A stretch of DNA of 64,000 bases, taken from contig CBDCTK010000002.1 of assembly GCA_965222225.1 (NCBI GenBank), positions 4,102,296-4,166,295 of the forward strand. Reading direction: 5' to 3'. Numbering within the stretch: position 1 is the first letter of the stretch; each line of letters starts with the position of its first letter. Both the position numbers and the translations under genes were made by a program. Source of the stretch: Candidatus Poribacteria bacterium (GTDB lineage Bacteria > Poribacteria > WGA-4E > JAJDTR01). Below the pieces are notes generated by a model. The model ran no database searches, was not told the origin of the DNA, and worked only from the letters and a program-made list of their open reading frames with translations. This document shows positions 13,797 through 62,161 of the stretch, one piece after another.

Positions 13797-13853
13797 CTAG
13801 TAAACGCCTCGGTACGCCAAGGCGTTTACTAGACACCAAGTTATGCCCCATCT

Positions 13854-14248
13854 TTAGGGAAAATGATTCTCACACGCATTGGCCTCCTCCTCTATTTCTT
13901 CTCTTGTACCGTCGGGGTGTTGAATGGTGCGCCATCCATCGACGTGAGATGACGCATGAGCGTCGGTGTTTACGTGCTTCTTATGTTTATGGGCAGTAAT
14001 GGTGCCGCCGCCATTAGCATAGTTCCAACCCTCCTTGTCCTTGTCCTTGTCGGTACCAACTCTTGCATACACCTCCCAAAATCCATTGTTAAGCCCATAA
14101 TTAGACGCATAAGCGTCTGCATAAGTCCTAGGCGCACTACCGCTGTTTGTGATCCTGCACCTTGGTAAATACTCCATGAATATGCGATTTTGACGATTGT
14201 GAAGGCCAGGAATAAGGCTGGAATAGCGAACATAATGAGTTTCTTCAT
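13854..14248 (-). CDS. small secreted protein candidate; signal peptide (13970..14248 frame) and hydrophilic mature part (13854..14177 frame) lie in different frames
   Basis: MKKLIMFAIPALFLAFTIVKIAYS is a signal peptide; the overlapping frame encodes a Gly/Asn/His/Asp-rich hydrophilic polypeptide; either two genes or one frameshifted gene. Confidence 0.3.
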
Positions 14249-14274
14249 AGTATTTTTCCTTCTGTTAAAAGATG

Positions 14275-15183
14275 TTAATCTTCCTCAGCGAGAAAGGTGT
14301 CGGGGTAATACCCGGCATCTGCATAATCAACAAATTTCACACCCGGGTATTTGTTCTTCCACTCTCCCGTGATGAAATCGTCAGTGTCGAATGGCCTAGC
14401 CTGCGATCCTAATGAAGATACAATCATCCTGAATGTGACGACATTTCCATCTCCATTATCAATAATCTCGTCTGCCCATTGGACATACAGTACATCAGGG
14501 TAGATAGGATAGACTTTGCCATCGTTGTGTCCGAAAGCGCCATCTATAAAACCGCGTTCTCCCTGATTCCAGAGTTTTATCAAGACACGGCATATCAACT
14601 CGTGTTCGGGCATGTCTCCCTTTTTGTAGCCGGGCATGCCTAACCAGACGGGTATGAGGTGTGAGGGAAAACCTTCGGGAACGGGTGGGAAATCGCTGTT
14701 TTCCTCGGCGGCTTCCTCATCAAGCGCCAGCAACACGGCTTCAAAATCTGTATCATCAAAGTCGTTGTCTTGGCTTAACGACTCTGTGCTGGCGAATTCG
14801 AGACTGGCGGTGGTTGTACTATCCGTTGTAGATTCATCACCGGACGCCTTCGGTGCATAGGCGCGCTTTGGTGGCTGCAAAGCACGCTTGAGGATCTCGG
14901 CACGCTCCGGATTAGGCTTAGGCAAGGCATAAACCGTCTTGGGTTCGACAGGTTGGCTCGCACGCCATACCAAGAATGTACCTAGCGCGACACAAAGCAA
15001 CACAACTAGAACGCCGGCATATAGGCAGTACTTCTTAACGAAAACCATATTAGCTATCGCCCTCCCTATTCGGTCGGTTGATCCTTTCTCACTGAGTGGA
15101 ATTGAAGCACCGAGATCCATTAATGACAAATCAACGATTCTCCGCAAAGCAAAGAATCCGGTTTGAGATAACCATCCGTTCAT
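14275..15183 (-). CDS. membrane-anchored hypothetical protein (likely true start at internal Met, 15048)
   Basis: single N-terminal TM YCLYAGVLVVLLCVALGTFLVW after MVFVKK; acidic low-complexity linker; C-terminal globular domain of unknown family. Confidence 0.5.
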   Translation of the reverse strand: MNGWLSQTGFFALRRIVDLSLMDLGASIPLSEKGSTDRIGRAIANMVFVKKYCLYAGVLVVLLCVALGTFLVWRASQPVEPKTVYALPKPNPERAEILKRALQPPKRAYAPKASGDESTTDSTTTASLEFASTESLSQDNDFDDTDFEAVLLALDEEAAEENSDFPPVPEGFPSHLIPVWLGMPGYKKGDMPEHELICRVLIKLWNQGERGFIDGAFGHNDGKVYPIYPDVLYVQWADEIIDNGDGNVVTFRMIVSSLGSQARPFDTDDFITGEWKNKYPGVKFVDYADAGYYPDTFLAEED

Positions 15184-48287: not shown

Positions 48288-49493
48288 ATGAAACTGATCG
48301 GTGGCGGAATTACGGCTGTTCCCGGTATTCGGGCATCGGGCGCGCACGGCGGCTTAAAGTCGGATAACCAGAGAGATGTCGCGTTGATTGTTGCGGATTC
48401 GCCGGCAGTGGCAGCAGGGGTATTTACGCGAAATCGTGTATGTGCCGCAACAGTTCTGCTTTCCCGTGAACACCTGAAAGATCCGGTCGCCCAAGCAATA
48501 GTCGTCAACAGTGGCAATGCAAACGCCTGCACCGGGGAACAAGGACTCGACAATGCTCGAAAAATGGCAGCCTTGGTTGGGGAGCAGCTTAACTTGGAGT
48601 CGAAAAACGTATTGGTTTCTTCAACGGGTGTGATTGGTGTACAATTGCCGATGGATGCAATCAGAAAGGGCATTGAGCGTGCTGCCGATACGTTGCGCGA
48701 AGATGGCGGATACGATGCGGCACAAGCCATTATGACCACTGACACCGTGCCGAAAGAGATTGCAGTGGAGATTGAGGTTGGCGGAGAAAAGGTCAAGATT
48801 GGGGGAATGACAAAAGGCTCGGGCATGATTGCGCCGAACATGGCGACGATGCTTGCGTTTCTGGCGGCGGATGTGAATATTGCAGCTGCGCCGTTACAGG
48901 AAGCTCTCCGGAAATCGGTCAATAAATCATTCAACCGGGTAACGGTTGACACAGACAGAAGTACCAACGACACAGTACAAATCTTGGCGACCGGATCGGC
49001 ACGCAATTCTGAAATCACCGAAGCATCAGGCGACGATTTTGATGCCTTCTACACAGCACTTGAGTTTGTCTGCATTGAGTTGGCGAAGAAGATAGCGCGG
49101 GACGGAGAAGGAGCCACAAAGATGATTGAAGTGGTTGTCAAGAATGCGAAGACCGAGGCAGAAGCCGAATTAGCAGCGCGAGCTACCGCCGAATCCCCGC
49201 TTGTAAAAACTGCCGTTTTCGGGAAGGATGCCAACTGGGGACGTATAATGATGGCGGTTGGAAAATCTGAAGCGCAGTTCGATCCTTACCAAGTGGATGT
49301 TTGGCTGGGTGATTACCAACTGGTGAAGGCAGGCATGGACTCGGGTTTTGATGAGGAGAAGGCTACACAGCTTTTCTCTGAGGACACGGTTGTAATCACT
49401 ATAGATCTTGCCGCAGGTGATGCAGAGGCGACGATGTGGACGTGCGACTATTCCTACGACTATATCAAGATAAACGCAGATTATCGGACATAA
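48288..49493 (+). CDS. argJ: bifunctional glutamate N-acetyltransferase / amino-acid N-acetyltransferase ArgJ
   Basis: autoproteolytic site PNMATMLAFLAAD and overall ornithine acetyltransferase family layout. Confidence 0.9.
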   Translation: MKLIGGGITAVPGIRASGAHGGLKSDNQRDVALIVADSPAVAAGVFTRNRVCAATVLLSREHLKDPVAQAIVVNSGNANACTGEQGLDNARKMAALVGEQLNLESKNVLVSSTGVIGVQLPMDAIRKGIERAADTLREDGGYDAAQAIMTTDTVPKEIAVEIEVGGEKVKIGGMTKGSGMIAPNMATMLAFLAADVNIAAAPLQEALRKSVNKSFNRVTVDTDRSTNDTVQILATGSARNSEITEASGDDFDAFYTALEFVCIELAKKIARDGEGATKMIEVVVKNAKTEAEAELAARATAESPLVKTAVFGKDANWGRIMMAVGKSEAQFDPYQVDVWLGDYQLVKAGMDSGFDEEKATQLFSEDTVVITIDLAAGDAEATMWTCDYSYDYIKINADYRT

Positions 49494-49546
49494 AGACGCT
49501 CAACTAGATTCAGAAATATGCCTCTGCCCGTCATTGCCGAATCCGT

Positions 49547-49586
49547 CGAGACCGAGGTTTTTGCGAATAACTCGGTCTCTCTTGCG
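49547..49586. terminator. possible bidirectional terminator hairpin between convergent argJ and isomerase genes
   Basis: GAGACCGAG ... CTCGGTCTC 9-bp stem with 14-nt loop containing GTTTTT; the loop is longer than ideal. Confidence 0.3.
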
Positions 49587-49612
49587 CAATTTCTTAACAC
49601 GAGCCCTTTAGG

Positions 49613-50611
49613 TTAGTCTTCAAATGGCGCATCAAACGCAATGTCTGACGGTTCAAAGTCATACGCTTTGACCGCGGCGCATGATTCGCGCGCGCCGTGC
49701 TCGCGGTCCATGCCACTATCCTCCCACTCAATCGATAAGGGGCCATCGTGCCCAATGCGGTTGAGCGCTCGGATAATCTCCTCAAAGTTGATATTCCCGC
49801 GGCCGATTGAACGGAAATCCCAGTATCGTTGACCATCTCCGAAATCGAGGTTTCCGCCGAAAACGCCGGAAAGACGCGGCGTGGATGACCACCAGACATC
49901 CTTCATGTGGACATGGTAGATTCGGCTGCCGAGACGCTCGATAAACGCGACGTAATCAACCCCCTGATATCCAAGGTGGCTAGGATCGTAGTTGAAACCG
50001 AAGGTTTCACGACCGTCAAGCGCTTCGATTGCCCGCTCGGCGGTCACAATATCGAAAGCAATCTCGGTCGGGTGAACCTCAAGCCCAAACTGGACACCCA
50101 CTTCATCGAATACGTCAAGGATCGGATTCCAGCGGTTGGCGAAGTCCTCATATCCCGCATCAATCTGGGCGGGATCGTTCGGCGGGAAGGAATAAAGCAG
50201 ATGCCAGATGCTGCTGCCTGTAAATCCGTTAACCACGCTTGCTCCCAGTTTTGCCGCCGCGCGTGCAGTTGCCTTCATTTCATCGGCGGCGCGTTGACGG
50301 ACGCCTTCCGGATCGCCATCGCCCCAGATATTTGGAGCAAGAATGGCTTGATGTCGGCCGTCAATATTGTCGCAGACCGCCTGACCGACAAGGTGATTAC
50401 TGATTGACCAGACTTTAAGTCCGTACTTCGCCAGAAGGTCGTGTTTTCCCTGACAGTAATCGGGATCTTCCAAAGCTTTGTCAACCTCGAAGTGATCGCC
50501 CCAGCAAGCTAGTTCCAAGCCGTCAAAACCCCAGTCGCTTGCTTTCTGCGCCAAATCTTCCAGTGTCAAATCCGCCCACTGGCCAGTGAACAGTGTAACA
50601 GGTCTCGCCAT
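49613..50611 (-). CDS. sugar phosphate isomerase/epimerase (xylose isomerase-like TIM barrel)
   Basis: [23 protein letters not shown] ... [10 protein letters not shown] pattern of the AP-endonuclease-2/xylose-isomerase-like TIM barrel family. Confidence 0.75.
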
Positions 50612-50741
50612 TTTGCTGCCTCCTTTGATTCTAATATTTTGATTCTAATATATGGTATTCTTTTTGGAAGGATCGCCTTCAGAAAATTGAACGGTCAACG
50701 CTATATTGAAAAGTTGGTTTCCAAAAACACCAAATGTCGGA

Positions 50742-51914
50742 TTACGAAGGTGGTGTATAGCAAGCGTCGATCCAGGCGCGTTTTGTACCGCTTTCGACCG
50801 CTTTATGTATGAAATGAACGCCGCGCGCCCCGTCCTGCACCGTCGGAAAGTCTGTATCGAATTCACCCGGCTGCTCGCCAGCAATTTTTGCCGCCATTGT
50901 GCGTGCTGCGTTGACGTAGATATTCGCGAAAGCCTCTATGAATCCTTCGGGGTGGCCAAACGGAATGCGGGAGTTGTGCTGCGCGATTTCGGCGACATAG
51001 CCGTTTCCTCGTTTGTAAACTTGCTCGGGGCCGTCCGGAAAACGAACGTAGAGGTAGTTCGGGTTCTCTTGATGCCAGTCTAACGAAGCGTCAGTACCGT
51101 AAACACGGATGCGAAGGTTGTTTTCCTCTCCCACCGACACTTGAGATGCGTAGAGGATTCCTCTCGCGCCGTGTTCGAAACCCACCAAGACGTTTCCGTC
51201 GTCTTCCAATTTGCGTCCCGGCACAAACGTCGTCAGATCGGCGCAAATTTCTTCTATCCCCAAGCCGGTGATGTAGTGAGCGAGGTTTTCCGCGTGCGAA
51301 CCAATGTCGCCGATACAAGAAGAAACACCTGTTTGATTGGGGTCTGTGCGCCAGACAGCCTGTTTGGTACCTTCCGCTTCCAAGAGAGTTGACAGCCAGC
51401 CCTGCGGGTATTCGACCACAATTTTTCGAACCGTTCCAAGCTGTCCGCCTCGAACCAACTCGCGTGCCTGCTTGACCATCGGATAGCCGGTATAATTATG
51501 GGTAAGTGCGAAGACGGCATCGTGTTGCGTCACTAGCCGACATAATTCCTCCGCGTCCTCTACCGTCGTTGTCATTGGTTTGTCGCAAACGACGTGGAAT
51601 CCCGCTTCGAGAAAAGTCTTCGCCGCATCAAAATGAATATTATTTGGTGTAACAATAGATACAAAATCGATTCGATCTCCTTCAGGTAGTTGGCTCTCCT
51701 TCTCTGCCATCTCCTTATACGAGCCGTACACTCGACTGGCGTCAAGTAGAAGCTCTTCGCCCTGTTGACGCGATTTGTCGGCGGATGAGGAGAACGCACC
51801 CGCGACTAGCTCAATTTCGCCGTCAAGTGCCGCCGCCTGCCGATGGACGGCACCAATAAACGCGTCCGGACCACCTCCTACCATCCCGTAACGTATTTTT
51901 CTTCCGAGTGGCAT
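50742..51914 (-). CDS. Gfo/Idh/MocA-family oxidoreductase
   Basis: [18 protein letters not shown] Rossmann start and conserved C-terminal alpha/beta domain. Confidence 0.8.
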
Positions 51915-52137
51915 ATTGGTATCTCCTTTGATGTTATGTATGCCAACAATCGTGTTGACCGAATCATTTTGAGACTGCTTTCGTAAGTCCTATCTATCTA
52001 GCAAATTACTGCATCCAAAATATCGATCCAATATAGCACGGTGGTGGGTTGCTGTCAATCACATAAAAAACGTAAATCGGAGCAATTGTCTCTATTCATG
52101 TGTGGAAATCCGTTATCTTGCACTCCTAATTCTCCGT

Positions 52138-53620
52138 AGGGGATCAAGTGAGTGAATAGCGAATGATCAACTGAGCGAACAGCGAAGGCGATAGAGTTCC
52201 CATAGAGATCCCTCCTCGCCCGCTCCCTTTCGGCAGAAATCCCTATATCCAACCACGCCCAGTCCATTGCGAACCACAATCCTGCGAGGCTATATGTAGG
52301 GTGCGCACCGCGCACCAGCCTTTTCGTCGTACTCGCGCGATAGAGTTCCTACCAGCCTTCCTATGCACCCGTAGGAGCGGCCTCGCGGTCTCGCTTGCGC
52401 AAGCCGGAGCGTCTGTCGTGAATATGCAGGTTGCGGGGCGGTGGAAATCCCCTCGGATGCCGGCGCATTATGCCCGCGCCGAGTTGGCAGAGCAAGGAGC
52501 AATTGCACGCTTCAAATACGGGAAAGACGGTGGGGGGTAGCGAACCGGGAAGGATAGTTGAGGGAAAGTACATATGTAGGGTGGGCACTGCCCACCATTT
52601 TTCTTAGGTGCGATTAACCGCCTGTTTAAGCCCGTGGGTTGGGATGAACGAAACCGAGAATTCCGGTGTCGACACACCAAACTTCCTCAAACTGGCTGAC
52701 CCGTCGGATAGCATCAAGGAAAGAGTGAAACCCAACTTCACCCCCTACGTCATCGGACACCTCCCCGGCAAACGTTGGGTTTCACTAGGATCACCGAGAA
52801 TTTATTCCGAATAGCGTCCCACAATCGTCGTGTCATGCTTGGTGTTTTTGCTTGTTACCGTTCAACCCAACCTACGCGCTTCCCACCATCTCTTATGGGG
52901 TACGATAGCCGATCCCGATAGAAATCCCTCAAGCAAACCAGATCGTGGGGGCGAGGTCTCCTCGCCCATTCTGTTGCGCACCCTAATCCCGTGCGGTAGA
53001 GCGTCCATTCCGCCAACCCCACACCTCCGCCACACCAATAAACGGCACATGCTCCTCCCACCGCCGACTCAACCCGCCGTTCCTAATCCACGTAATCCAA
53101 TAATCCATCAAGCGAGTGAATAGATCGTGTGACCGAAAAGGATCAAGGGCGCGAATAGCGACCGCGATAGAGATCCGCCATGTCTGTCGCAAACCGATAG
53201 CCCCGTCTTGCACTCCAGCTGAGAACAAGCGACTGAATGAGGAGTGATCGAACCAATGGACACTGAATACGATAGGGAATCCTGATAGTATTTCCCACTG
53301 CGATGGAGTTCTTAAAATGAAGTTAAACGTCGCGCCTTGCACTCCAGCGGAGTGCGATGTCGATAGAACTGCAATGCGTACAATCTTCGCGCTCCAAAGG
53401 AGCGCAATGTCGGTAGGATGGCGATTCGATAAGGATCAAACGAGTGAACAGTGGTCTCCGTAGGGGCGCGATCAACTGACTAGATAAGGAAGGATCAAGT
53501 AAGTGAATAACGATCAACCGACTGATTAGGGAGGACGATAGTAGATTCTGCGCGATAGAATTCCTATAGAGATCCCCCCGCGCCCAATCCCGCGCGATAG
53601 ATTTCTCATAGCAATCACGA
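52138..53620. repeat. 1.5-kb gene-poor tract densely packed with the modular dispersed repeat (at least six copies in both orientations)
   Basis: e.g. 52138-52212 GGGGATCAAGTGAGTGAATAGCGAATGATCAACTGAGCGAACAGCGAAGGCGATAGAGTTCCCATAGAGATCCC; 53107-53180; 53222-53290; 53410-53620; only short overlapping ORFs. Confidence 0.6.
52301..52540 (+). pseudogene. C-terminal fragment of a tyrosine recombinase (integrase) gene
   Basis: SGLAVSLAQAGASVVNMQVAGRWKSPRMPAHYARAE...ARFKYGKDG parallels the C-terminus of the intact integrase at 58873..59784 (GHSLRIGSAVSLAEAGASVKEVQRAGRWQEPTMPARYVREA...ARYKAGK). Confidence 0.55.
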
Positions 53621-53907
53621 CCGGGTTTCCATGACGGCCTGACTTCCAACAGCAAATCGAATCTTCCTCTTTATAGCCAAACGCCCTGCAGTAGTTCTAT
53701 TTGCTTGTTCGCTTTCCTCGGTGCTATACTTGCCACGCTATTCTACTTCGGTACAATAGCTGTTGTCAAATAAGCGATAGAGCAATTTAGCGCCATCGTC
53801 GGTTTCACGAGGCGCGCTGCTGACAGAAATCGAACCCAATGTGTCTTATCATACGTTCTATCGACTAATCGACTCCCGCGGCAAAACCAATCCGTGAAGG
53901 AAAAAAC

Positions 53908-54993
53908 TTGAGAATTGAAAACGTCGACTTTCCCAAACCGTTGATAGAAGCCTTGCATGACAACGAACTCGTAGTGTTCGCTGGGGCTGGCGTTTCAATC
54001 GGTAAACCTGCCCGTCTGCCCAGTTTCAGATCGTTGACCAATATTATCGCCGAAGGTACCGGGAAAACGGCGCGCGATGGCGAGACGCCTGAGCAATTCC
54101 TCGGAAGATTAAAAGACCAAGGCGTAAAAGTGCATGTGCGCGCTGCGCGACCGCTTTCTCAAGAAGGTTTGCAGGCTACGGCCCTTCATCAAGATCTTCT
54201 TAGACTCTATCCTAAAACAGCGCCCGTTCGCCTCGTCACCACTAATTTCGATCCCCTGTTTGAGCAGGCAGCCTTTGAGCAGGCAGCCGAGGAAATATTC
54301 GACAGTTCGCCAGAAGTATTCCGGGCACCCGCGCTGCCTTTGGGACGTGAGTTCGACGGCATTGTTCATGTTCACGGTTCAGTCCGTCGCCCTAACGAGA
54401 TGTTACTTACGGATAGAGATTTTGCTCGCGCTTATCTGACCGATGGCTGGGCTCGACGCTTTCTCGTCGAACTTTTCAGTAATTTCCGAATCCTCTTTGT
54501 TGGCTACAGTCATGACGACACGATTATGAATTATCTGGCCCGCGCGCTTCCTGCCGGTTCGGAATACCAACGTTTCATTTTGACCGGTTCCGAAGACAAG
54601 AAACCCTCTGATGATTGGCGTTCACTAGGGATTGAACCGATAGTCTACCCTCAGGCTAACGAAAATGACTATAGTGAACTCGACACAAGCATTCATGGCC
54701 TCGCCGAACTTGTACAGCGACGCGTTGTTGTTTGGAATGATGAAATAACCAATATAGCGCAAGTTCCGCCTCCCACTGACGAGAATAAGGCAGATCTCAT
54801 TGAGTACGCGCTAAGCGATGAAGTAAACACAAGGTTCTTTGCAAAAGCGGCTTCAGATCCTGATTGGATTGACTGGCTCGACGAGCGTGGACATTTGACC
54901 GCGCTATTCCGCGACGATATACTCACCGCGCAAGCCAAAACCTTGTCTTGGTGGTTGGCAGATCGATTTCTTTTCGGAATTAGTAGCTTGTAG
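53908..54993 (+). CDS. SIR2-like (DHS-like NAD-binding, SIR2_2 type) domain protein; candidate NADase defence effector, probably the 5' part of an IS-disrupted longer gene
   Basis: LVVFAGAGVSIGKPARLPSF (GAGxS), VTTNFDPLFE (TTNYD) and VHVHGSV (catalytic His) are the three SIR2_2 hallmarks; ORF ends abruptly 20 bp before an IS1595 element. Confidence 0.75.
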   Translation: MRIENVDFPKPLIEALHDNELVVFAGAGVSIGKPARLPSFRSLTNIIAEGTGKTARDGETPEQFLGRLKDQGVKVHVRAARPLSQEGLQATALHQDLLRLYPKTAPVRLVTTNFDPLFEQAAFEQAAEEIFDSSPEVFRAPALPLGREFDGIVHVHGSVRRPNEMLLTDRDFARAYLTDGWARRFLVELFSNFRILFVGYSHDDTIMNYLARALPAGSEYQRFILTGSEDKKPSDDWRSLGIEPIVYPQANENDYSELDTSIHGLAELVQRRVVVWNDEITNIAQVPPPTDENKADLIEYALSDEVNTRFFAKAASDPDWIDWLDERGHLTALFRDDILTAQAKTLSWWLADRFLFGISSL

Positions 54994-54999
54994 CTTTTA

Positions 55000-56215
55000 G
55001 ACTGACGACAAACATAAAACTTGGTACCCTGTCGTAAATCTTTTCGTCACACGTAGATGTCCATAGTGACTATTCTTCTCGTAGGAGTTTGCTATGGACA
55101 TTTTGAATCTTATGAAAGAGTTTCCAAATCAAGAATCTTGTCTCAGATTTATAGAGGAAAAACGTTGGAAGGACGGTGTTTGCTGTATCCACTGTGGCAG
55201 TGAAAAAGTTGGACGCAAGAACAAAAACGACATTACTACTGGTTGGAATTGCTACGATTGTGAATCTAGCTTTTCGGCTACAGCAGGAACCATCTTCCAT
55301 GGTACCAAGATACCTCTCCAGAAATGGTTTTTGGCTATCTCAATTCTTTCCAATGCCAAGAAAAGCATATCGAGTTGTCAGCTTGCTCGTGACTTGGACA
55401 TGAATCAAAAGTCCGCTTGGTATATGGCAATGCGCCTCCGTGAGAAAATGAGTGATAGTGATGAATTGCTGAAAGGGATAGTTGAAGCGGACGAAACCTA
55501 TGTCGGCGGCAAACCCAGAGCAAAATCTAAGAGAGGTAGAGGCACAAATAAATCTCCCGTCATCGGCGTAGTCGAGAGAGGCGGTCGGGTGGTTGCTAAA
55601 TTCATGAAGGTTCTATCTGGTGAAAATATCAGAGAATTCATCCTTAGCAATGTCTCACCCGATGAGTCTATTCTTATGACTGATGAATTTCGCTCTTACA
55701 ATAGTCTGGACGAAGATATCGAAAGACATGTTATCCATCACCAAGAGAGATATGTTTCTGAGGACGGCGTAACTCACACCAACACCATCGAGTCGTTTTG
55801 GGCTTGTGTCAAGAGGTCATTCTACGGAACGCATCATCACTACAGCAAGAAGTGGCTGCCACTGTATATCATGGAGTCTTGCTGGAAATATAATCGCAGA
55901 AAAGATGATGAGATTTTCATAAGATTTTTTGATGAATGCTTCACCTGAGCCACATGAATTGTTTGGCTATCGGTATATTCTGTCAACGACAACATCATGG
56001 TGTGCTGAAAATCCCATAGTGTTGGAAATTAAAATCCCGCAGATAACCCGCAATGCTCCCGCGAGCATGTACAAACGCTTGGTCAACATGATATGCCTCC
56101 ATTTCTCTCTTATAGAGATGTATTTTAGTGTGAATCAAGATTCCGAACACTGTCTAAAATGATTGTACATTAAGAAGAGAAAAGCAAGCAAATCGACCAA
56201 AAAGCAGTTAACTAC
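55000..56215 (+). mobile_element. IS1595-family insertion sequence (boundaries approximate)
   Basis: single transposase gene with N-terminal CxxC zinc ribbon and E-x-DETYVGG motif; I could not define the terminal inverted repeats by eye. Confidence 0.55.
55094..55948 (+). CDS. IS1595-family transposase
   Basis: CIHCGSEKVGRK...CYDCESSF zinc ribbon; EADETYVGGKPRAKSKRGRG; DDE-type C-terminal region. Confidence 0.8.
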   Translation: MDILNLMKEFPNQESCLRFIEEKRWKDGVCCIHCGSEKVGRKNKNDITTGWNCYDCESSFSATAGTIFHGTKIPLQKWFLAISILSNAKKSISSCQLARDLDMNQKSAWYMAMRLREKMSDSDELLKGIVEADETYVGGKPRAKSKRGRGTNKSPVIGVVERGGRVVAKFMKVLSGENIREFILSNVSPDESILMTDEFRSYNSLDEDIERHVIHHQERYVSEDGVTHTNTIESFWACVKRSFYGTHHHYSKKWLPLYIMESCWKYNRRKDDEIFIRFFDECFT

Positions 56216-56274
56216 TAAGTCCCTTTCTTTTCAACCATGCAAACAGACTTTTCCTGCTCATTGGTAAGCATAAT

Positions 56275-58626
56275 ATGCGCTTGCATCCGCAGCTCTGGCG
56301 CGATATGGGTTGGAAACTTGCGAGGAATGGTGAAGTTTTTTCTGATAAAGACACGCTTCGCCGCTGGTTTTCACTGTTGCTTACCTCTCTTCGAGAGAAA
56401 ATAAGCATGAACGATCTGATGCATGTCGACACGGACTATCTCCTGCCTCAGATGGGTGAACTTTGCATAGCAAACGAAATGCTGGATGATTTATTGCAGA
56501 TATTCGATTGGATGATGGAAAGTCGCATTCGGATTAACAAAGGATACTCGTGGCCTTCTGCCGACGATGACAGGGAAATACCCTCTGTTGATGCTGAATT
56601 AATTCCAATTAGCGAACAACACGAATTGAATGAACTGTGGGAAGTGGGACTGAAGCCTAAGCTACCTCAAGTAGCCAAGCCGTTACTCGATCGGGTAATC
56701 AGGCGGCTAGAAGGACAATATCTCACACTGTGTACTTGGGGAAAGGTGCACGGCACATGGGATCCAATGAGCGAGGGACGTTCTGCCATTGAGCCTGAAG
56801 AAGGGGATGGTAATACCGAATCGATTGATGTGATGATCAATGCGGCCCGCGATTGCCTCTTATGGCTGGCTTCCAATCAGGTAGAAACAGCGACACAATG
56901 GTGTAATCGGCATGTGCGTTCGGGAGTAACTCTGCTACGCAGACTTGCGGTACATGGGGTGTACAAACGCGAAGATTTAACAGCAGACGACAAAATTGAT
57001 TGGTTACAAACACACATAAATCAGATTGGGTTGTCGGTTGGCGCCGAAGTGTTCCCGTTACTACAGCAAGCCTATCCCGAAGCCTGCCCGGCACATCGAA
57101 GCTCGCTTATTGAAGCCATGTGGACTTACCGTTGGCCTAAGGAAACAGCTTCGGACGGAGATAAGCATGCGGCAAGGCAACAATTCGACTGGTTTAATTG
57201 CATCCATCGATGTGTTCCTGACTGCCTCTTGGCTAAAGCAGCGTTGGATAAAGTGTTGGCGCGGTACCCAGAATTCAAGTCGATGGTACCTCAACCTCCG
57301 ACACAAGGAGGCATATCAGGTCCAATCGCGCCGCAAAGTGCTCCGCCCCCTGAAGAACTACCGCCAACACCTTCCGCCGATCAACTACACGAGTTACTGT
57401 CAAATCAAACTGCAGCGTGGGATGAAGCTAAACATAGTCAAGTATTCCAGAGGCTTGTCAGAATTGAGTTGTATCCAAAATATAGTCACGCGATTGCCAA
57501 TGCGCTCTATGCACTGGTAGAGAACGGTGGTCCCTCCTATGCCTTAAAACTACTCCCGCAAGCCCAGCGAATCGCTTCGGCACTGTGGCCCCATCTTGAC
57601 CGGACCGCGCCAATCGATGCAAGAGGAGACTGGCTATTCGCCGCCATGAATCACCCGGCAGGGCTCCTGGCTTACTTCTGGATATCTGCACTCTCACTCT
57701 GGCGCGAGCACCACGATCCTAAACCTACAATTCTCAACGATGACTATCGTAGGGCGCTGTCCGACATTGTGGTGGACCGGTCGCCGGCAGGTACGCTCGG
57801 GCGGACGGTTCTCGCCAGCAAATTGCATATTCTCTTGGACGCTGACCAGGTATGGACACGTGAATATCTTCTTCCGCTTTTTGACCCGTGCAGCGATGAC
57901 TTCCAAAGTGCGTGGGACGGTTTCGTAAAATGGGGAAAGCTCAATCCTTCGGTCGCTAAAGCCATGACTGATCTATTCCTCAAGGCAGTTACGCGGATCG
58001 GCACCGACCTCTTCAACCAACGTGATTCATTCGTAAAACACTACATCGCTATGCTCATAGATTCCATTTATATCGCCGAAGACCCTCTCAGCGAATGGAT
58101 TCCTAAGATATTCAATCACGGCAGCCAAGATAGTCCTTCTGCCGATAGCGAACCTACGCTTTTTCCCCGCGCCAATCGATCTATTGCGGAGATCTTTGCA
58201 TCAGTTATGAGTAGCCGCTTACGGAATATGCCTGAAACCGAGCAGCGGGAGTTGTGGGAGCACTGGCTCAAGGATTACTGGCAGAATCGCCTGGAAGGTG
58301 TGCCCTCCCCACTTATGTCTAGCGAAGCTAAACTCATGCTCGATTGGCTGACGGCTTTGACTGCGGTATTTCCCGATGCCGTCGCGCTTGCTGTCCAGAT
58401 GCCATCGACTTCGTTGGAGCGTACGAGGATTCTATCTTCTCTGGTGAAAAATAGTACATGGTTGAGCCATCCCGATGCGGTCGCGAAGTTATTGATTTAT
58501 CTGTGGCAATGCGGTATACCGGCACACTATTGGCACTTAGTGCAGAAGATCGTTGCCCCCCTCGTCGAGTCGAAAATCCCGGCAGAACTTCAGCAGAAAC
58601 TGGAGGACATCAGAATCCAACTCTAG
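56275..58626 (+). CDS. large all-alpha-helical protein (783 aa), possibly the displaced C-terminal sensor part of the SIR2 gene
   Basis: reading frame is open upstream of the annotated Met back to 56217 with no RBS; highly helical, Leu/Ala/Trp-rich repeats. Confidence 0.5.
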   Translation: MRLHPQLWRDMGWKLARNGEVFSDKDTLRRWFSLLLTSLREKISMNDLMHVDTDYLLPQMGELCIANEMLDDLLQIFDWMMESRIRINKGYSWPSADDDREIPSVDAELIPISEQHELNELWEVGLKPKLPQVAKPLLDRVIRRLEGQYLTLCTWGKVHGTWDPMSEGRSAIEPEEGDGNTESIDVMINAARDCLLWLASNQVETATQWCNRHVRSGVTLLRRLAVHGVYKREDLTADDKIDWLQTHINQIGLSVGAEVFPLLQQAYPEACPAHRSSLIEAMWTYRWPKETASDGDKHAARQQFDWFNCIHRCVPDCLLAKAALDKVLARYPEFKSMVPQPPTQGGISGPIAPQSAPPPEELPPTPSADQLHELLSNQTAAWDEAKHSQVFQRLVRIELYPKYSHAIANALYALVENGGPSYALKLLPQAQRIASALWPHLDRTAPIDARGDWLFAAMNHPAGLLAYFWISALSLWREHHDPKPTILNDDYRRALSDIVVDRSPAGTLGRTVLASKLHILLDADQVWTREYLLPLFDPCSDDFQSAWDGFVKWGKLNPSVAKAMTDLFLKAVTRIGTDLFNQRDSFVKHYIAMLIDSIYIAEDPLSEWIPKIFNHGSQDSPSADSEPTLFPRANRSIAEIFASVMSSRLRNMPETEQRELWEHWLKDYWQNRLEGVPSPLMSSEAKLMLDWLTALTAVFPDAVALAVQMPSTSLERTRILSSLVKNSTWLSHPDAVAKLLIYLWQCGIPAHYWHLVQKIVAPLVESKIPAELQQKLEDIRIQL

Positions 58627-58680: not shown

Positions 58681-58810
58681 GGGTGGAATCTGCGATCAAG
58701 CGACTGAATAAGGAGCGATCAAAGGAATGGATTATGACTGCGATAGGAATCTCTATAGAAAATCCCACGCGATAGAGCTCCCATAGCAAATCGCGTACGA
58801 TAGAAAGTCC
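58681..58810 (+). repeat. modular dispersed repeat, multi-word copy
   Basis: GGGTGGAATCTGCGATCAAGCGACTGAATAAGGAGCGATCAAAGGAATGG...GCGATAGAGCTCCCATAGCAAATCGCGTACGATAGAAAGTCC. Confidence 0.6.
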
Positions 58811-58872: not shown

Positions 58873-59784
58873 TTACTTCCCAGCCTTATACCGCGCCACT
58901 GGACTCCGTTCCGACGGTGCCTCCCTCACATACCGCGCCGGCATCGTCGGCTCCTGCCACCGCCCCGCTCGTTGCACCTCCTTCACGCTTGCCCCGGCCT
59001 CTGCAAGCGACACCGCAGACCCGATACGAAGCGAGTGTCCGCTAATCAATCCCGTCACTCCCGCTTCCGCCGCCCGCCGCTGTATCGCCGCGCGCCCCCC
59101 CTTCACCCCCAGCCGATCGTCAGTCACATGATTCTGGAAGCGTATCCTCCGGAACAAAGCCCCCGACGCAATCCCCGCTCTCGTTCGATACCGCTCTATC
59201 AACCGCCGTGTCGATTCACAGATATACAGATTCTCGCCCTGGTCCTCCCCGCTTGTCCTCTTGCCGTAGACCTGAAGCCCCTCGGCTCTAACATCCTCCA
59301 CATCCACTGCAACCGCCTCCGAGATGCGTAACAGGCAATCGCTCATCAGCCTAATCATGGCGGCATCACGGGTGCCCGCCGCGGTATCTGACGATTCCGC
59401 CGCCGCACACACCCGCTCCACTTCGTGCCACGTAAGCCCGTCTACCTGGCGCCGCCCGCGCCCTTTACCTTCGCCGCGGATATCAGACAATGCGCGAGCG
59501 GTGATGTCCCCAACCACATTGCCAACCCCACGGTACTCCGCCATCCACTTCACCGCGGACACGACCAGCTTGATCGTCGCCGGCGATTTCCCCTGTGCAT
59601 ACAGAAACCTGATATATTCCGCCAGCACCGCATCCGATAGGGCACGTCCGTCTAGCCAAGCTTCCAGCTTGCGGCTCGCGTGCTCATACGCCTTGAGCGT
59701 GTTATCCGCCACGTTTGCCCGAATCTCCTGCCCCGTACCCGCGGCGATTCGCAACCCCCTATCCGATTCCTTGCCTTGCTTCAT
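58873..59784 (-). CDS. tyrosine recombinase / phage-type integrase
   Basis: C-terminal catalytic box GHSLRIGSAVSLAEAGA...AGRWQEPTMPARY (H-x-x-R ... Y) and N-terminal SAM-like core-binding region. Confidence 0.85.
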   Translation of the reverse strand: MKQGKESDRGLRIAAGTGQEIRANVADNTLKAYEHASRKLEAWLDGRALSDAVLAEYIRFLYAQGKSPATIKLVVSAVKWMAEYRGVGNVVGDITARALSDIRGEGKGRGRRQVDGLTWHEVERVCAAAESSDTAAGTRDAAMIRLMSDCLLRISEAVAVDVEDVRAEGLQVYGKRTSGEDQGENLYICESTRRLIERYRTRAGIASGALFRRIRFQNHVTDDRLGVKGGRAAIQRRAAEAGVTGLISGHSLRIGSAVSLAEAGASVKEVQRAGRWQEPTMPARYVREAPSERSPVARYKAGK

Positions 59785-59956: not shown

Positions 59957-60225
59957 TAGGGTGCGATCAAAGGAATGAATAATGACTCCGATAGAGATCC
60001 CCTGCGATCAAGCGAATGAATAATAAGCGATCAACTGAACGAATAGTGAAGGAGCAACTGACCGATAGGGAAGGCGGTAGAGATCCCATAGAAAGTCCTG
60101 ATAGAGATCCTACCAGCCTCTAAAAGCCCCCAGAGTGGGATCAAGGGAGATCCAATGAGCGAATAGCGAATGCGATAGGGATCCCTGATAGAGACTGCGA
60201 TAGAGATCCTAACAGGTATGTAGCA
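59957..60225 (+). repeat. modular dispersed repeat, long multi-word copy
   Basis: GGGTGCGATCAAAGGAATGAATAATGACTCCGATAGAGATCCCCTGCGATCAAGCGAATGAATAATAAGCGATCAACTGAACGAATAGTGAAGGAGCAACTGACCGATAGGG...GCGATAGAGATCC. Confidence 0.6.
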
Positions 60226-60301: not shown

Positions 60302-61155
60302 TTAGAACACACCCTCCCTTACCATCGTTCGGTTCAACTTCTTCACCACCGCCGGCGTCACCGGATCGTTGTCCGGGAGGAATCCCTCTCCCTTCTTTAG
60401 TTTAACAGCCGCAACACTGTCCAACTCAGCCAGCTTCTTAGCCCCTTGCACCGCCTTCAGATCGCCCCCGTAGTACTCGTACCAAGGCAGCTTCGCGTTT
60501 GTGTAATCCTGAGCCGTCGGCGGCTTCCCTGGCGGCTCGCAACCCGTCACTTTGAGGAGCTCCACGCGCTATTCACGATATGAACGAAGCAGCGCGAGCC
60601 GGTCGACGTGTCCCACGCATCGATGCCGTATTCGTCCTCGTATATCTCCTGCCGCATAAGACCGCCCGGCGCCAACCCCATCCGCGGTTCCTCGCGAAGT
60701 ACATAGTAGTCTGCTCTGCTCAGGTTCTTATCAAGTGGCAGTTCCTCGTATATCGACCGCTTCATCGGATAGACAGCAATCTGGAGCCCGCCGTGCTCCG
60801 CCTCGCCCGTTAGCTGCTCCTCCGCCGTGAAACCCTCACCCAGCGGCATCGCCACGAACTGCCGAATTAGCCCCTTCTCCACGCAGAACCCGTCCAACCA
60901 CGGTTGACCCGGCACCACCAAGTAATCCTGCCGCTCCCCGCTGAGCTCCTCCTCCCATGCCCCCCCGGTCACCGTGTTGACTTTGCCCGCTGCTATCTTC
61001 ACCGCCATCGGATAGTCGCCGTGGAAACAGATCCACATCGCCTCCGCTTGATACATCGGGGTGAACACCCCGCCATGTTTCCTCCACGTTTCCGGCAAGT
61101 TATCCGGGTAGTCGTCCACTCGACTCAGCGGGAATCTCCCAAGCCCCGGCGGCAA
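60302..61155 (-). CDS. hypothetical protein, apparently frameshifted (60547..61155 and 60302..60565 overlap by 19 nt in different frames)
   Basis: ORFs only; no recognisable motif; the two pieces abut as expected for a single disrupted gene. Confidence 0.3.
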
Positions 61156-61727
61156 ATAATGTTTTCGGTTGTCGTCCGGAATCCGCAGCGTACGCTGGAA
61201 TTCAATCGCGAGCTCGGCAAATCCGTATATCTCCGGAAATCGAAATATAATCTAATCGTTTCTCAGTTCAATAGTTTTTTTCCCGTTCCTAGTCCTATTA
61301 GCCATAATCATAGACCTCTCTGTTTTTTAATTCCTGATGAGCAAAACACTTCAACACGTAATATGTATTATAACAGGATTTATATAACTTAACAACCGAA
61401 AACATCAAGCCCTTTCCAATTCAGCCCCGCCGCCCTTGTAGCCCCTCTTCTACGGTCGCAATCCCCCGGCGGACGCGCCCGCTGTTCGTGGCGTGGGGTA
61501 CGCTGCACACTGCTATCAAGCCAGCTAGCCGGCGAATACCGAGTGCGGTAGACATCCCCTCCAGCCGGCGCCGCGCAAATACGCCTAAGCAACGGGCAAC
61601 GGCAACCCTCGAAGCGATGCGGGCTGCTTTGGTGTCGTGCCGAGGCGCCGCCCTGCGCCACCAACTGATCGAACATATTGATGGATTGAAAAACGATAAA
61701 GCGAATGGCCAACTGACTGGATAATGA

Positions 61728-61805
61728 AGGATCCACTGAGATCAACCGACTGATTAGGGAGGACGATAGTAGATCCTGCGCGATAGAGTTCCCATAGAGA
61801 TTCCA
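61728..61805 (+). repeat. copy of modular dispersed repeat
   Basis: GAGATCAACCGACTGATTAGGGAGGACGATAGTAGATCCTGCGCGATAGAGTTCCCATAGAGATTCC. Confidence 0.55.
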
Positions 61806-62161
61806 TGAATCCTAGTTCGGACAATCCCGTCCCCTTCCCCACTCTCCACCGCTCTCTCAAGTGCAAAAGATTTACGGAGTTGGTAGTTAGAGACTGGCAA
61901 TATTGAACAAGCACGTATACGTATGAGTGGGAGTGTAGTTATTTTCTGACACCTGCACATAAACGTGCTATTATACGGTAAGTATCAAGAAGTTCATCCG
62001 CTATCAGGGAAGGGTGGCATACGATAACAGCACACGACACAACAGCGAATTTATTATAGCGCTTCTCTATTGGCTTAGGTATAGTATAATGGGGCGGTTG
62101 CAACACAGTGGCGATTGATTCGATACATGCAACACATGAAGATAAAAGAAGGGATAAACCA

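Follow-up and report, generated by a model that had tools for sequence, protein, structure and literature searches.

Very probable inactivation of a DSR1-type defence-associated sirtuin gene by an IS1595-family insertion in Candidatus Poribacteria

The locus described here raises the question of whether a 361-residue SIR2 protein and a 783-residue helical protein, encoded on either side of an IS1595-family transposase gene, are the products of two genes or the halves of one, and, if they are halves, to which family the original gene belonged. The window analyzed, that is, the whole stretch of 64,000 nucleotides of Candidatus Poribacteria DNA, contains all three open reading frames on which a preliminary description had based its proposal of a split gene (53908-54993, 55094-55948, and 56275-58626). 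As argued below, the two outer frames very probably derive from one DSR1-type defence-associated sirtuin gene that was inactivated by insertion of an IS1595-family element at codon 356. The features of the locus are as follows.

52373..52537, + strand: remnant of a tyrosine-recombinase gene (last 55 codons)
53908..54974, + strand: 5' part of the DSR1-like gene (codons 1-355 and the first two bases of codon 356)
54259..54288, + strand: perfect tandem duplication of 15 bp (TTTGAGCAGGCAGCC x2), adding FEQAA
54967..54974, no strand: left copy of the target-site duplication (TSD), 8 bp, TTTCTTTT
54975..56223, + strand: IS1595-family element, 1,249 bp, with the ends CGGAATTAG...CTAAGTCCC
about 54975-54998 and 56200-56223: imperfect terminal inverted repeats of the element (detected as a pair at 54976-54998 and 56200-56222)
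55094..55948, + strand: intact IS1595 transposase gene (284 aa; Zn ribbon and DDE domain)
56224..56231, no strand: right TSD copy, 8 bp, TTTCTTTT, perfectly matching the left copy
56232..58626, + strand: 3' part of the DSR1-like gene (third base of codon 356 to the stop; restored residues 357-1153)
56275-58626, + strand: 783-aa ORF, with a C-terminal DUF4020 (Pfam, 1e-11) and nearly all helical in the AF2 model
58873..59784, - strand: second tyrosine-recombinase gene, intact, downstream; 52-56% identical to the upstream-type integrase

The 5' part holds the whole SIR2_2 domain, including the catalytic motifs TTNFD (N113) and HVHG (H154/H156). The earlier assignment of SIR2_2 motifs to the 361-aa ORF is borne out both by Pfam (E 9e-23) and by an alignment of 25 sequences, the window allele and its homologues, in which these motifs and residues are invariant. 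The ORF starts with TTG at 53908, with GAAGGA at 53896-53901 ahead of the start codon. Its stop codon (54991-54993), previously placed 20 bp before the transposase gene, is actually located 100 bp ahead of the transposase ATG and 17-19 bp inside the left end of the IS, so that the last five residues of the ORF, GISSL, are encoded by the IS. The 3' part corresponds to the helical-repeat sensor region with DUF4020 at its end. The 783-aa ORF had been described as helical, open in frame upstream of its Met, and lacking a ribosome-binding site, in full agreement with the AF2 model, with the frame check (the frame is open beyond the nominal ATG at 56275), and with the search of the region before the ORF, where neither a Shine-Dalgarno sequence nor a sigma-70-like outward promoter was found. 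The AF2 model is of modest quality (pLDDT 71, pTM 0.46), with the SIR2 core poorly modelled, and its Foldseek comparison with the PDB returned only generic HEAT/ARM alpha-solenoids at a TM of ~0.2, which therefore do not discriminate between families.

The inserted element shows nothing unusual for the IS1595 family, with which it shares a Zn-ribbon plus DDE_Tnp_IS1595 transposase, a length of ~1.25 kb, short imperfect inverted repeats, and multi-copy occurrence, as well as an 8-bp target duplication, the hallmark of the family. The transposase matches Pfam DDE_Tnp_IS1595 (1.2e-36) and Zn_ribbon_IS1595 (9e-7), and scores 188.6 bits against NCBIfam transpos_IS1595 (cut-off 75). Mapping of the IS ends against IS-free alleles, a check suggested in the preliminary description, gave an unambiguous outcome: the window aligns with the alleles L001, L002, and L092 up to 54975 and again from 56224, the empty site in L001 and L002 reads TTTCTATT, and the 8-bp TSD is perfect. 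The ends were confirmed independently by eight other copies with 98.6-99.2% identity, and 8-bp TSDs were also found at the independent copies L083, L085, and L089. The element is multi-copy in related assemblies, its 90% transposase cluster having 155 members, one variant of which was found on 16 contigs, and transposases at least 90% identical to that of the window occur in a Poribacteria chromosome. Together with a Poribacteria locus as the best DNA match and a lineage-specific repeat, this points indirectly to a Poribacteria-like sponge symbiont as the probable source. A scan of JGI metagenomes for the IS junction and the empty site gave no match, an uninformative outcome because the related contigs sit in ENA assemblies.

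When the IS and one TSD copy are removed in silico, the frame of the 783-aa ORF continues that of the SIR2 ORF, and a single open frame of 1,153 aa results, close to the sum of about 1150 aa estimated earlier. The proposed splitting of a gene by IS1595 is thus upheld by the IS ends (54975/56223), the TSD, and the restored frame. The peptide across the junction, ...WWLADRFLF|NHANRLFLLIGKHNMRLHPQLW, is unbroken in 24 of 24 aligned homologues and contains many invariant positions. An independent conserved start for the helical ORF was looked for in the homologues, in most of which its "start" Met proved to be an internal Met within the conserved motif LLIGKHNMRLHP.

The same picture emerges from intact alleles and more distant homologues. 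IS-free alleles with about 94-97% nucleotide identity to the window (91-97% in the aligned parts of L001 and L002) are single ORFs of 1,134-1,148 aa, and L092, one of these, occupies the corresponding place on the chromosome, where ArgJ, a TIM-barrel gene, GFO/IDH/MocA (96.7% identity), an integrase gene, and the 1,148-aa gene are found. Relatives are encoded in 515 genome stretches from one-per-species genomes. More than 100 full-length SIR2_2+DUF4020 proteins were found, with 1,117-1,212 aa apart from two shorter ones. Consistent with the expectation that homologues would be single genes, 74 of the 82 loci examined have one uninterrupted ORF; frameshifts or stops at the other 8, which could be long-read errors, complete the set, and no conserved two-gene arrangement occurs in any of the 82. 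No neighbouring gene is conserved either, the top neighbour cluster being present in at most 8 of these loci. The family members found here come mainly from MAGs of Poribacteria, Latescibacterota, Chloroflexota, and others, for the most part lineages known as sponge symbionts. In the alignment, ~40 residues present in other members are missing from the subclade of the window. A literature search for "DUF4020" found no papers.

As for the identity of the restored gene, the best PADLOC and NCBIfam matches for both fragments are Dsr1 models. N-terminal residues 7-326 match positions 9-353 of the Dsr1 model, and the 783-aa ORF alone is collinear with its C-terminal half (80-278 with 526-730, and 448-589 with 952-1091). 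Alignment by hhalign of the family profile A2 with PGAP-annotated Pantoea Dsr1 gave a probability of 100% (E 1.5e-49, 24% identity) over 1,070 aligned columns (Q5-1154/T7-1225). The restored protein is to be regarded as a divergent DSR1 relative or clade, not an equivalog, because its score of 204.4 bits against the NCBIfam Dsr1 equivalog NF041818 is far under the cut-off of 1,400 bits; with tblastn, the family detected annotated Dsr1 proteins through the SIR2 third only. The resemblance to DSR1 comprises a single-gene system without a conserved partner, a size of ~1,150-1,270 aa, a SIR2_2 domain with the conserved Asn/His at the N-terminus, a long stretch of helical repeats making up the C-terminal region, and collinear homology along nearly the entire length, whereas the window family is only 24% identical to annotated Dsr1, has a C-terminus matching Pfam DUF4020, and in the window is broken by an IS. 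Judged by sequence homology, the family of the window gene is a divergent clade of DSR1.

The earlier suggestion of a DSR1/DSR2-like protein thus stands for DSR1, with its full-length homology and best-matching models, and falls for DSR2. DSR2 of Bacillus subtilis, for which the tail tube protein is the trigger and abortive infection the outcome, has the same overall logic, a SIR2 NADase at the N-terminus joined to an alpha-solenoid at the C-terminus that recognizes a structural protein of the phage; this identity was rejected, as PADLOC (E <= 0.01) gave no match to a Dsr2 model and a sequence search of the PDB none to a solved DSR2 chain. The PDB search yielded matches to the SIR2 domain only (ThsA with E 1e-4, FAM118B, and a SIR2 deacetylase-like chain) and nothing for the helical part. 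ThsA and SIR2-HerA contain a related SIR2 NADase domain. Thoeris ThsA was rejected since the SLOG/STALD domain is absent, the match to the PADLOC ThsA models (E 5e-8) is confined to the SIR2 region (4-211), and a ThsB/TIR neighbour is neither found in the window nor conserved across the homologous loci. SIR2-HerA was rejected since the window neighbours are IS and integrase genes and no HerA is conserved across the homologous loci.

The intact protein would consist of a SIR2 NADase at the N-terminus and, behind it, a helical-repeat sensor of ~800 residues with DUF4020 at its end. According to published work on DSR1 and its relatives, the SIR2 domain would be silent until the sensor binds a phage structural protein, which in the case of E. 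coli Dsr1 is the major capsid protein, and the triggered sensor would then cause NAD+ hydrolysis and stalling of phage replication. DSR1 has been reported as a single-gene defence acting by transient NAD+ depletion without culture collapse (bioRxiv 10.1101/2021.12.14.472415), and the TPR sensor of Dsr1/Avs7 as triggered by the major capsid protein, with defence requiring the effector domain (PMC12803255). Phage-triggered NAD+ depletion, protection, and capsid triggering are documented only for B. subtilis-expressed DSR1 and E. coli Dsr1 (bioRxiv 10.1101/2021.12.14.472415; PMC12803255), and the trigger and outcome suggested here are extrapolated from DSR1. The alternative that the SIR2_2-DUF4020 proteins form a functionally distinct DSR1-like clade, with a trigger specificity or outcome of its own, and that the window carries a natural "effector-only" allele, not a dead pseudogene, in which the free SIR2 fragment has been kept for some other NAD-related purpose, appears unlikely. 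Of the earlier notion of an NAD-depleting abortive-infection gene, the inactivated DSR1-type gene is retained; the label "abortive infection" may be wrong because of the transient depletion without culture collapse reported for DSR1.

With the IS landing at codon 356, just past the SIR2 domain, the DSR1-type gene would be inactivated; the defence function of the window allele is most likely lost because the effector (356 native residues plus GISSL) is parted from the sensor. From its sequence characters the insertion is a recent one: stops and frameshifts are absent from both halves, no difference separates the two TSD copies, and other intact copies of the IS match it at ~99% identity.

A persisting function has nevertheless to be weighed: the free SIR2 fragment might act as an NADase with altered regulation or none at all, or the halves might reassociate non-covalently, so that defence or another NAD-related function survives the split. 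Judging from sequence, the 361-aa fragment may have some residual activity and the 783-aa fragment may be expressed. The SIR2 fragment does keep its domain entire, catalytic residues included, the promoter-like site and Shine-Dalgarno sequence upstream of 53908 are those kept in intact alleles, and neither half has acquired a stop or frameshift; however, the lack of decay is equally accounted for by the recency of the insertion, the 783-aa ORF has no outward promoter or Shine-Dalgarno sequence of its own, toxicity would be expected of an NADase that escapes regulation, and the FEQAA duplication by the catalytic Asn, unique to this allele, may already impair the enzyme. We regard such a functional split as quite improbable.

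Still less probable is a two-component system of separate genes, comparable to SIR2-HerA or ThsA/ThsB, with the IS in an intergenic spacer. Deposition as separate 361-aa (P0138) and 783-aa (P0137) proteins and the presence of an ATG on the 783-aa ORF would fit this arrangement, but the frames fuse exactly once the IS is excised, that ATG corresponds to the internal Met of the conserved motif in most homologues, the final five codons and stop of the SIR2 ORF are IS sequence, the syntenic allele L092 and the 74 homologous loci have single ORFs, and neither HerA nor TIR is encoded next to the gene. The source being probably a metagenome-assembled chromosome, an assembly chimera formed at a repeated IS also deserves consideration, the more so as related assemblies carry the IS in multiple copies (the 155-member cluster, with a variant on 16 contigs) and the 8 disrupted homologous loci could reflect long-read errors. 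Against such an artefact, both flanks come from one gene and agree in orientation and frame, and a mis-join would not create a TSD, here perfect and also seen at three other copies; we therefore hold it to be very improbable.

Inactivation of a single DSR1-type gene being the preferred reading, the deposited 361-aa "SIR2" and 783-aa hypothetical proteins would be annotated as halves of one DSR1-like defence gene, and censuses of defence systems should count the pair as a pseudogene. The locus offers a clean, datable instance of IS activity leading to the loss of a defence gene in a decaying integrase-associated island; as an ordinary and well-explained IS knock-out, it raises no new mechanistic question. 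The intact orthologous allele (P0001/P0139) is available for experiments on the divergent DSR1 clade.

The surrounding island is decaying in further ways, as seen in the truncated integrase and in the 15-bp duplication within the catalytic domain. The added FEQAA directly follows the catalytic TNFD and occurs in the window allele only among the 25 aligned sequences. Substitutions specific to the window in a three-taxon count amount to 13 nonsynonymous and 9 synonymous, too few to show relaxed selection. PADLOC detected no other defence genes among nine neighbouring ORFs, and no defence island is recognizable beyond the integrases; an Rfam scan of 51-64 kb and a tRNA scan found nothing, and the island therefore has no identified attachment site of the tRNA type. 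The tyrosine-recombinase gene, of which only the remnant at 52373..52537 is left here, is directly upstream of the intact gene in full form in L001, L002, and L092; in comparison with these alleles, the window is missing the rest of this integrase and ~6 kb of island DNA. The second, intact recombinase gene (58873..59784) belongs to the variable island and lies outside the DSR1-like gene.

The defence gene of the window is a single SIR2_2-DUF4020 reading frame cut by an IS1595-family element. The three ORFs named in the preliminary description are all present, and together with the IS and its target duplication they lie as follows:

53908-54993, + strand, SIR2 ORF, 361 aa, TTG start, GAAGGA 6 nt upstream
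54967-54974 and 56224-56231, target duplication TTTCTTTT on both sides of the IS
54975-56223, IS1595-family element, 1,249 bp, CGGAATTAG...CTAAGTCCC
55094-55948, + strand, transposase ORF, 284 aa, DDE_Tnp_IS1595 and Zn_ribbon_IS1595
56275-58626, + strand, helical ORF, 783 aa, DUF4020 at the C-terminus

Pfam assigns SIR2_2 to the 361-aa ORF (E 9e-23), DDE_Tnp_IS1595 (E 1e-36) plus Zn_ribbon_IS1595 to the 284-aa ORF, and a C-terminal DUF4020 to the 783-aa ORF (E 1e-11); NCBIfam likewise identifies the 284-aa product as an IS1595-family transposase (188.6 bits; cut-off, 75). The catalytic N113 (TTNFD) and H154/H156 (HVHG) are invariant in a 25-sequence alignment. The gap between the SIR2 stop and the transposase gene, initially put at 20 bp, is in fact 100 bp when counted to the transposase ATG, and the stop lies inside the IS, which supplies the last five codons of the SIR2 ORF as well. 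In the annotation of the source contig (5,635,097 bp) the two fragments are entered as separate proteins (P0138 and P0137).

The limits of the element follow from eight further copies on other contigs (98.6-99.2% identity), whose similarity to the window ends at 54975 and 56223, and from the perfect 8-bp target duplications flanking three of the eight (L083, TAAGTTAT; L085, ATTGACTT; L089, TAGAGATT). Imperfect inverted-repeat arms at 54976-54998 and 56200-56222 enclose the transposase gene, and GC falls from ~50% to 41-44% over 54.75-56.5 kb, consistent with foreign DNA. The window duplication matches at a ninth base only by chance, the IS happening to begin with the same nucleotide. Both the ends and the duplication, for which the preliminary description had looked to an IS-free allele, are thus fixed to the base, and in silico removal of the IS with one duplicate restores a single stop-free frame of 1,153 codons. 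The five other copies (L084, L086, L087, L088 and L090) are without matching 8-bp duplications; some of them have one flank in common and not the other (for example L084 with L090, and L086 with L087 and L088), a pattern pointing to recombination between copies or to rearrangements mediated by the IS.

That the two halves might always be separate genes, the reading that the preliminary description had set against its own, does not survive comparison with IS-free alleles. Searching with the restored sequence retrieved P0001 (1,148 aa, 95% identity, 100% coverage), P0002 (1,134 aa, 90% identity) and over 100 full-length SIR2_2+DUF4020 proteins, all but two of them (which are shorter) 1,117-1,212 aa long. 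The DNA of the IS-free loci L001 and L002 matches the window at 91-97% identity on either side of the IS, to 54975 and from 56224, with the empty site TTTCTATT occurring once only. A third IS-free locus, L092, is syntenic with the window and encodes P0139 (1,148 aa); because its first 3 kb (ArgJ, a xylose-isomerase-like TIM-barrel gene and GFO/IDH/MocA) are 96.7% identical to window 49073-52106 and are followed by an island containing the intact gene, it is a true orthologous uninterrupted allele. Moreover, the junction peptide ...WWLADRFLF|NHANRLFLLIGKHNMRLHPQLW is unbroken in all 24 homologues of the alignment, with many invariant positions, and most of them share, as an internal residue, the Met at which the 783-aa ORF nominally starts. 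When one genome of each species was scanned, 515 stretches proved to encode a relative; among the best 80, the match spans query residues 1 to ~1153 almost throughout. The match is one uninterrupted ORF at 74 of 82 loci examined, the other eight (L007, L011, L018, L035, L064, L071, L076 and L079) having frameshifts or internal stops and no conserved split, which reflects either frequent pseudogenisation in these MAGs or long-read indel errors. When all flanking ORFs within 4 kb were clustered across loci, no neighbour gene was common to more than eight, implying that the protein works without a dedicated partner.

The architecture was previously likened to DSR1/DSR2; the DSR1 half of this comparison holds, and no Dsr2 model was matched among the PADLOC models, of which the best three were Dsr1 (E down to 3e-48). 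The sole NCBIfam match of the restored protein is Dsr1 (NF041818), at 204 bits against an equivalog cut-off of 1,400, and the 783-aa ORF alone aligns collinearly with Dsr1 models (residues 80-278 to positions 526-730, and 448-589 to 952-1091). Combined in a profile, 82 family members match the PGAP-annotated Dsr1 of Pantoea agglomerans (WP_158132494.1, locus L091) with 100% probability (E 1.5e-49, 1,070 columns, Q5-1154/T7-1225), collinear over the full length yet at 24% identity. These results place the window gene in a divergent clade of full-length DSR1 homologues that is no equivalog. The PADLOC models of ThsA, LmuA and SIR2-pAgo match the restored protein weakly and in the SIR2 core only. 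An AF2 model of P0001, of modest confidence (pLDDT 71, pTM 0.46), is all-helical from residue ~250 to the end, and Foldseek relates it to generic alpha-solenoids only (CAP-G, karyopherins, Avs4; TM ~0.2). The window allele, P0001 and P0002 are without ~40 helical-region residues present in other homologues (alignment columns 783-842, after window protein residue ~743); this deletion in the putative sensor is specific to their clade.

Four features together indicate a recent insertion: neither gene half contains a stop or frameshift, the target duplication has not diverged between its two copies, the transposase gene is intact, and the IS is ~99% identical to its other copies. Relative to L001 and L002, 13 nonsynonymous and 9 synonymous window-specific substitutions were counted, too few to show relaxed selection. 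The locus bears further damage, in part upstream of the gene (see below) and in part inside the SIR2 domain:

54259-54288, perfect 15-bp tandem duplication, TTTGAGCAGGCAGCC x2

It adds FEQAA straight after the catalytic TNFD motif, is missing from all 24 aligned homologues, and may be a second lesion or one that predates the IS.

In B. subtilis, DSR1, a lone SIR2 protein, gives protection against phi29 with transient NAD+ depletion and no culture collapse (bioRxiv 10.1101/2021.12.14.472415). For the C-terminal region of Dsr1, a 2026 preprint describes a TPR sensor that Avs7 also has, with the phage major capsid protein as its trigger, and finds that both toxicity and defence need the N-terminal effector (PMC12803255). 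By homology, the helical region of the intact protein would recognise a structural protein of the phage and thereby activate the SIR2 NADase. The IS in the window separates this effector, of which 356 native residues remain with GISSL added, from its sensor, and upstream of the 783-aa ORF there is neither a sigma-70-like promoter nor a Shine-Dalgarno sequence, so that loss of defence function is most likely. The proposed insertional inactivation is thus supported, and the locus is a textbook case in a known kind of defence gene, useful for annotation and not surprising.

The surroundings of the gene differ among alleles:

52373-52537, remnant of the upstream tyrosine recombinase, reduced to its last 55 codons
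52586-53576, repeat-rich insertion of ~0.9 kb upstream of the SIR2 gene, extra relative to L092
58710-61549, ~2.8-kb module
58873-59784, - strand, second, intact tyrosine recombinase, in the module
60302-60565 and 60547-61155, - strand, two module ORFs with no Pfam or PADLOC match

A tyrosine-recombinase gene lies directly upstream of the SIR2-DUF4020 gene in L001, L002 and L092. Compared with L092 (3031-9642), the window (52107-53576) is without ~6.3 kb of island DNA holding an AlpA-like gene, several small ORFs and most of this recombinase. The ~2.8-kb module, edged by repeat arrays, is missing from L002, which resumes after the gene with sequence resembling window 61549-61775. About 350 bp downstream of the intact gene, L092 carries another IS1595-family transposase gene (13800-14513, 237 aa) without DNA similarity to the window IS; this appears to be a locus prone to IS insertion.

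Most homologues are from MAGs of lineages known as sponge symbionts (Poribacteria, Latescibacterota, Chloroflexota, Ca. Synechococcus spongiarum and the like), with weaker ones (34-36% identity) in Pseudomonas, Variovorax, Luteimonas and Kluyvera. The sole non-allelic DNA match is one Poribacteria locus, and transposases at least 90% identical are found on a Poribacteria chromosome. With the distribution of the repeat core described next, these matches suggest a Poribacteria-like host.

A dispersed intergenic repeat with the core GCGATAGAGATCC (14 matches at ≤1 mismatch, 0.11 expected) has no Rfam match and lies within degenerate arrays of ~11/22-nt periodicity (GATCAAnnGAnnGAATAG...):

52138-52230, 53141-53280, 53468-53591, 58690-58752, 59957-60210 and 61522-61820, repeat sites
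5108, 18270, 27859, 27946 and 36271, further repeat sites

The arrays bracket island gene modules, and homology to L001 and L002 runs roughly from array to array. Of the 90 loci compared, 83 lack the exact core; those that have it are L001, L002, L003 and L053 (both Poribacteria), and the IS-bearing contigs L084, L087 and L090, so that among these loci it is shared with Poribacteria-type ones only.
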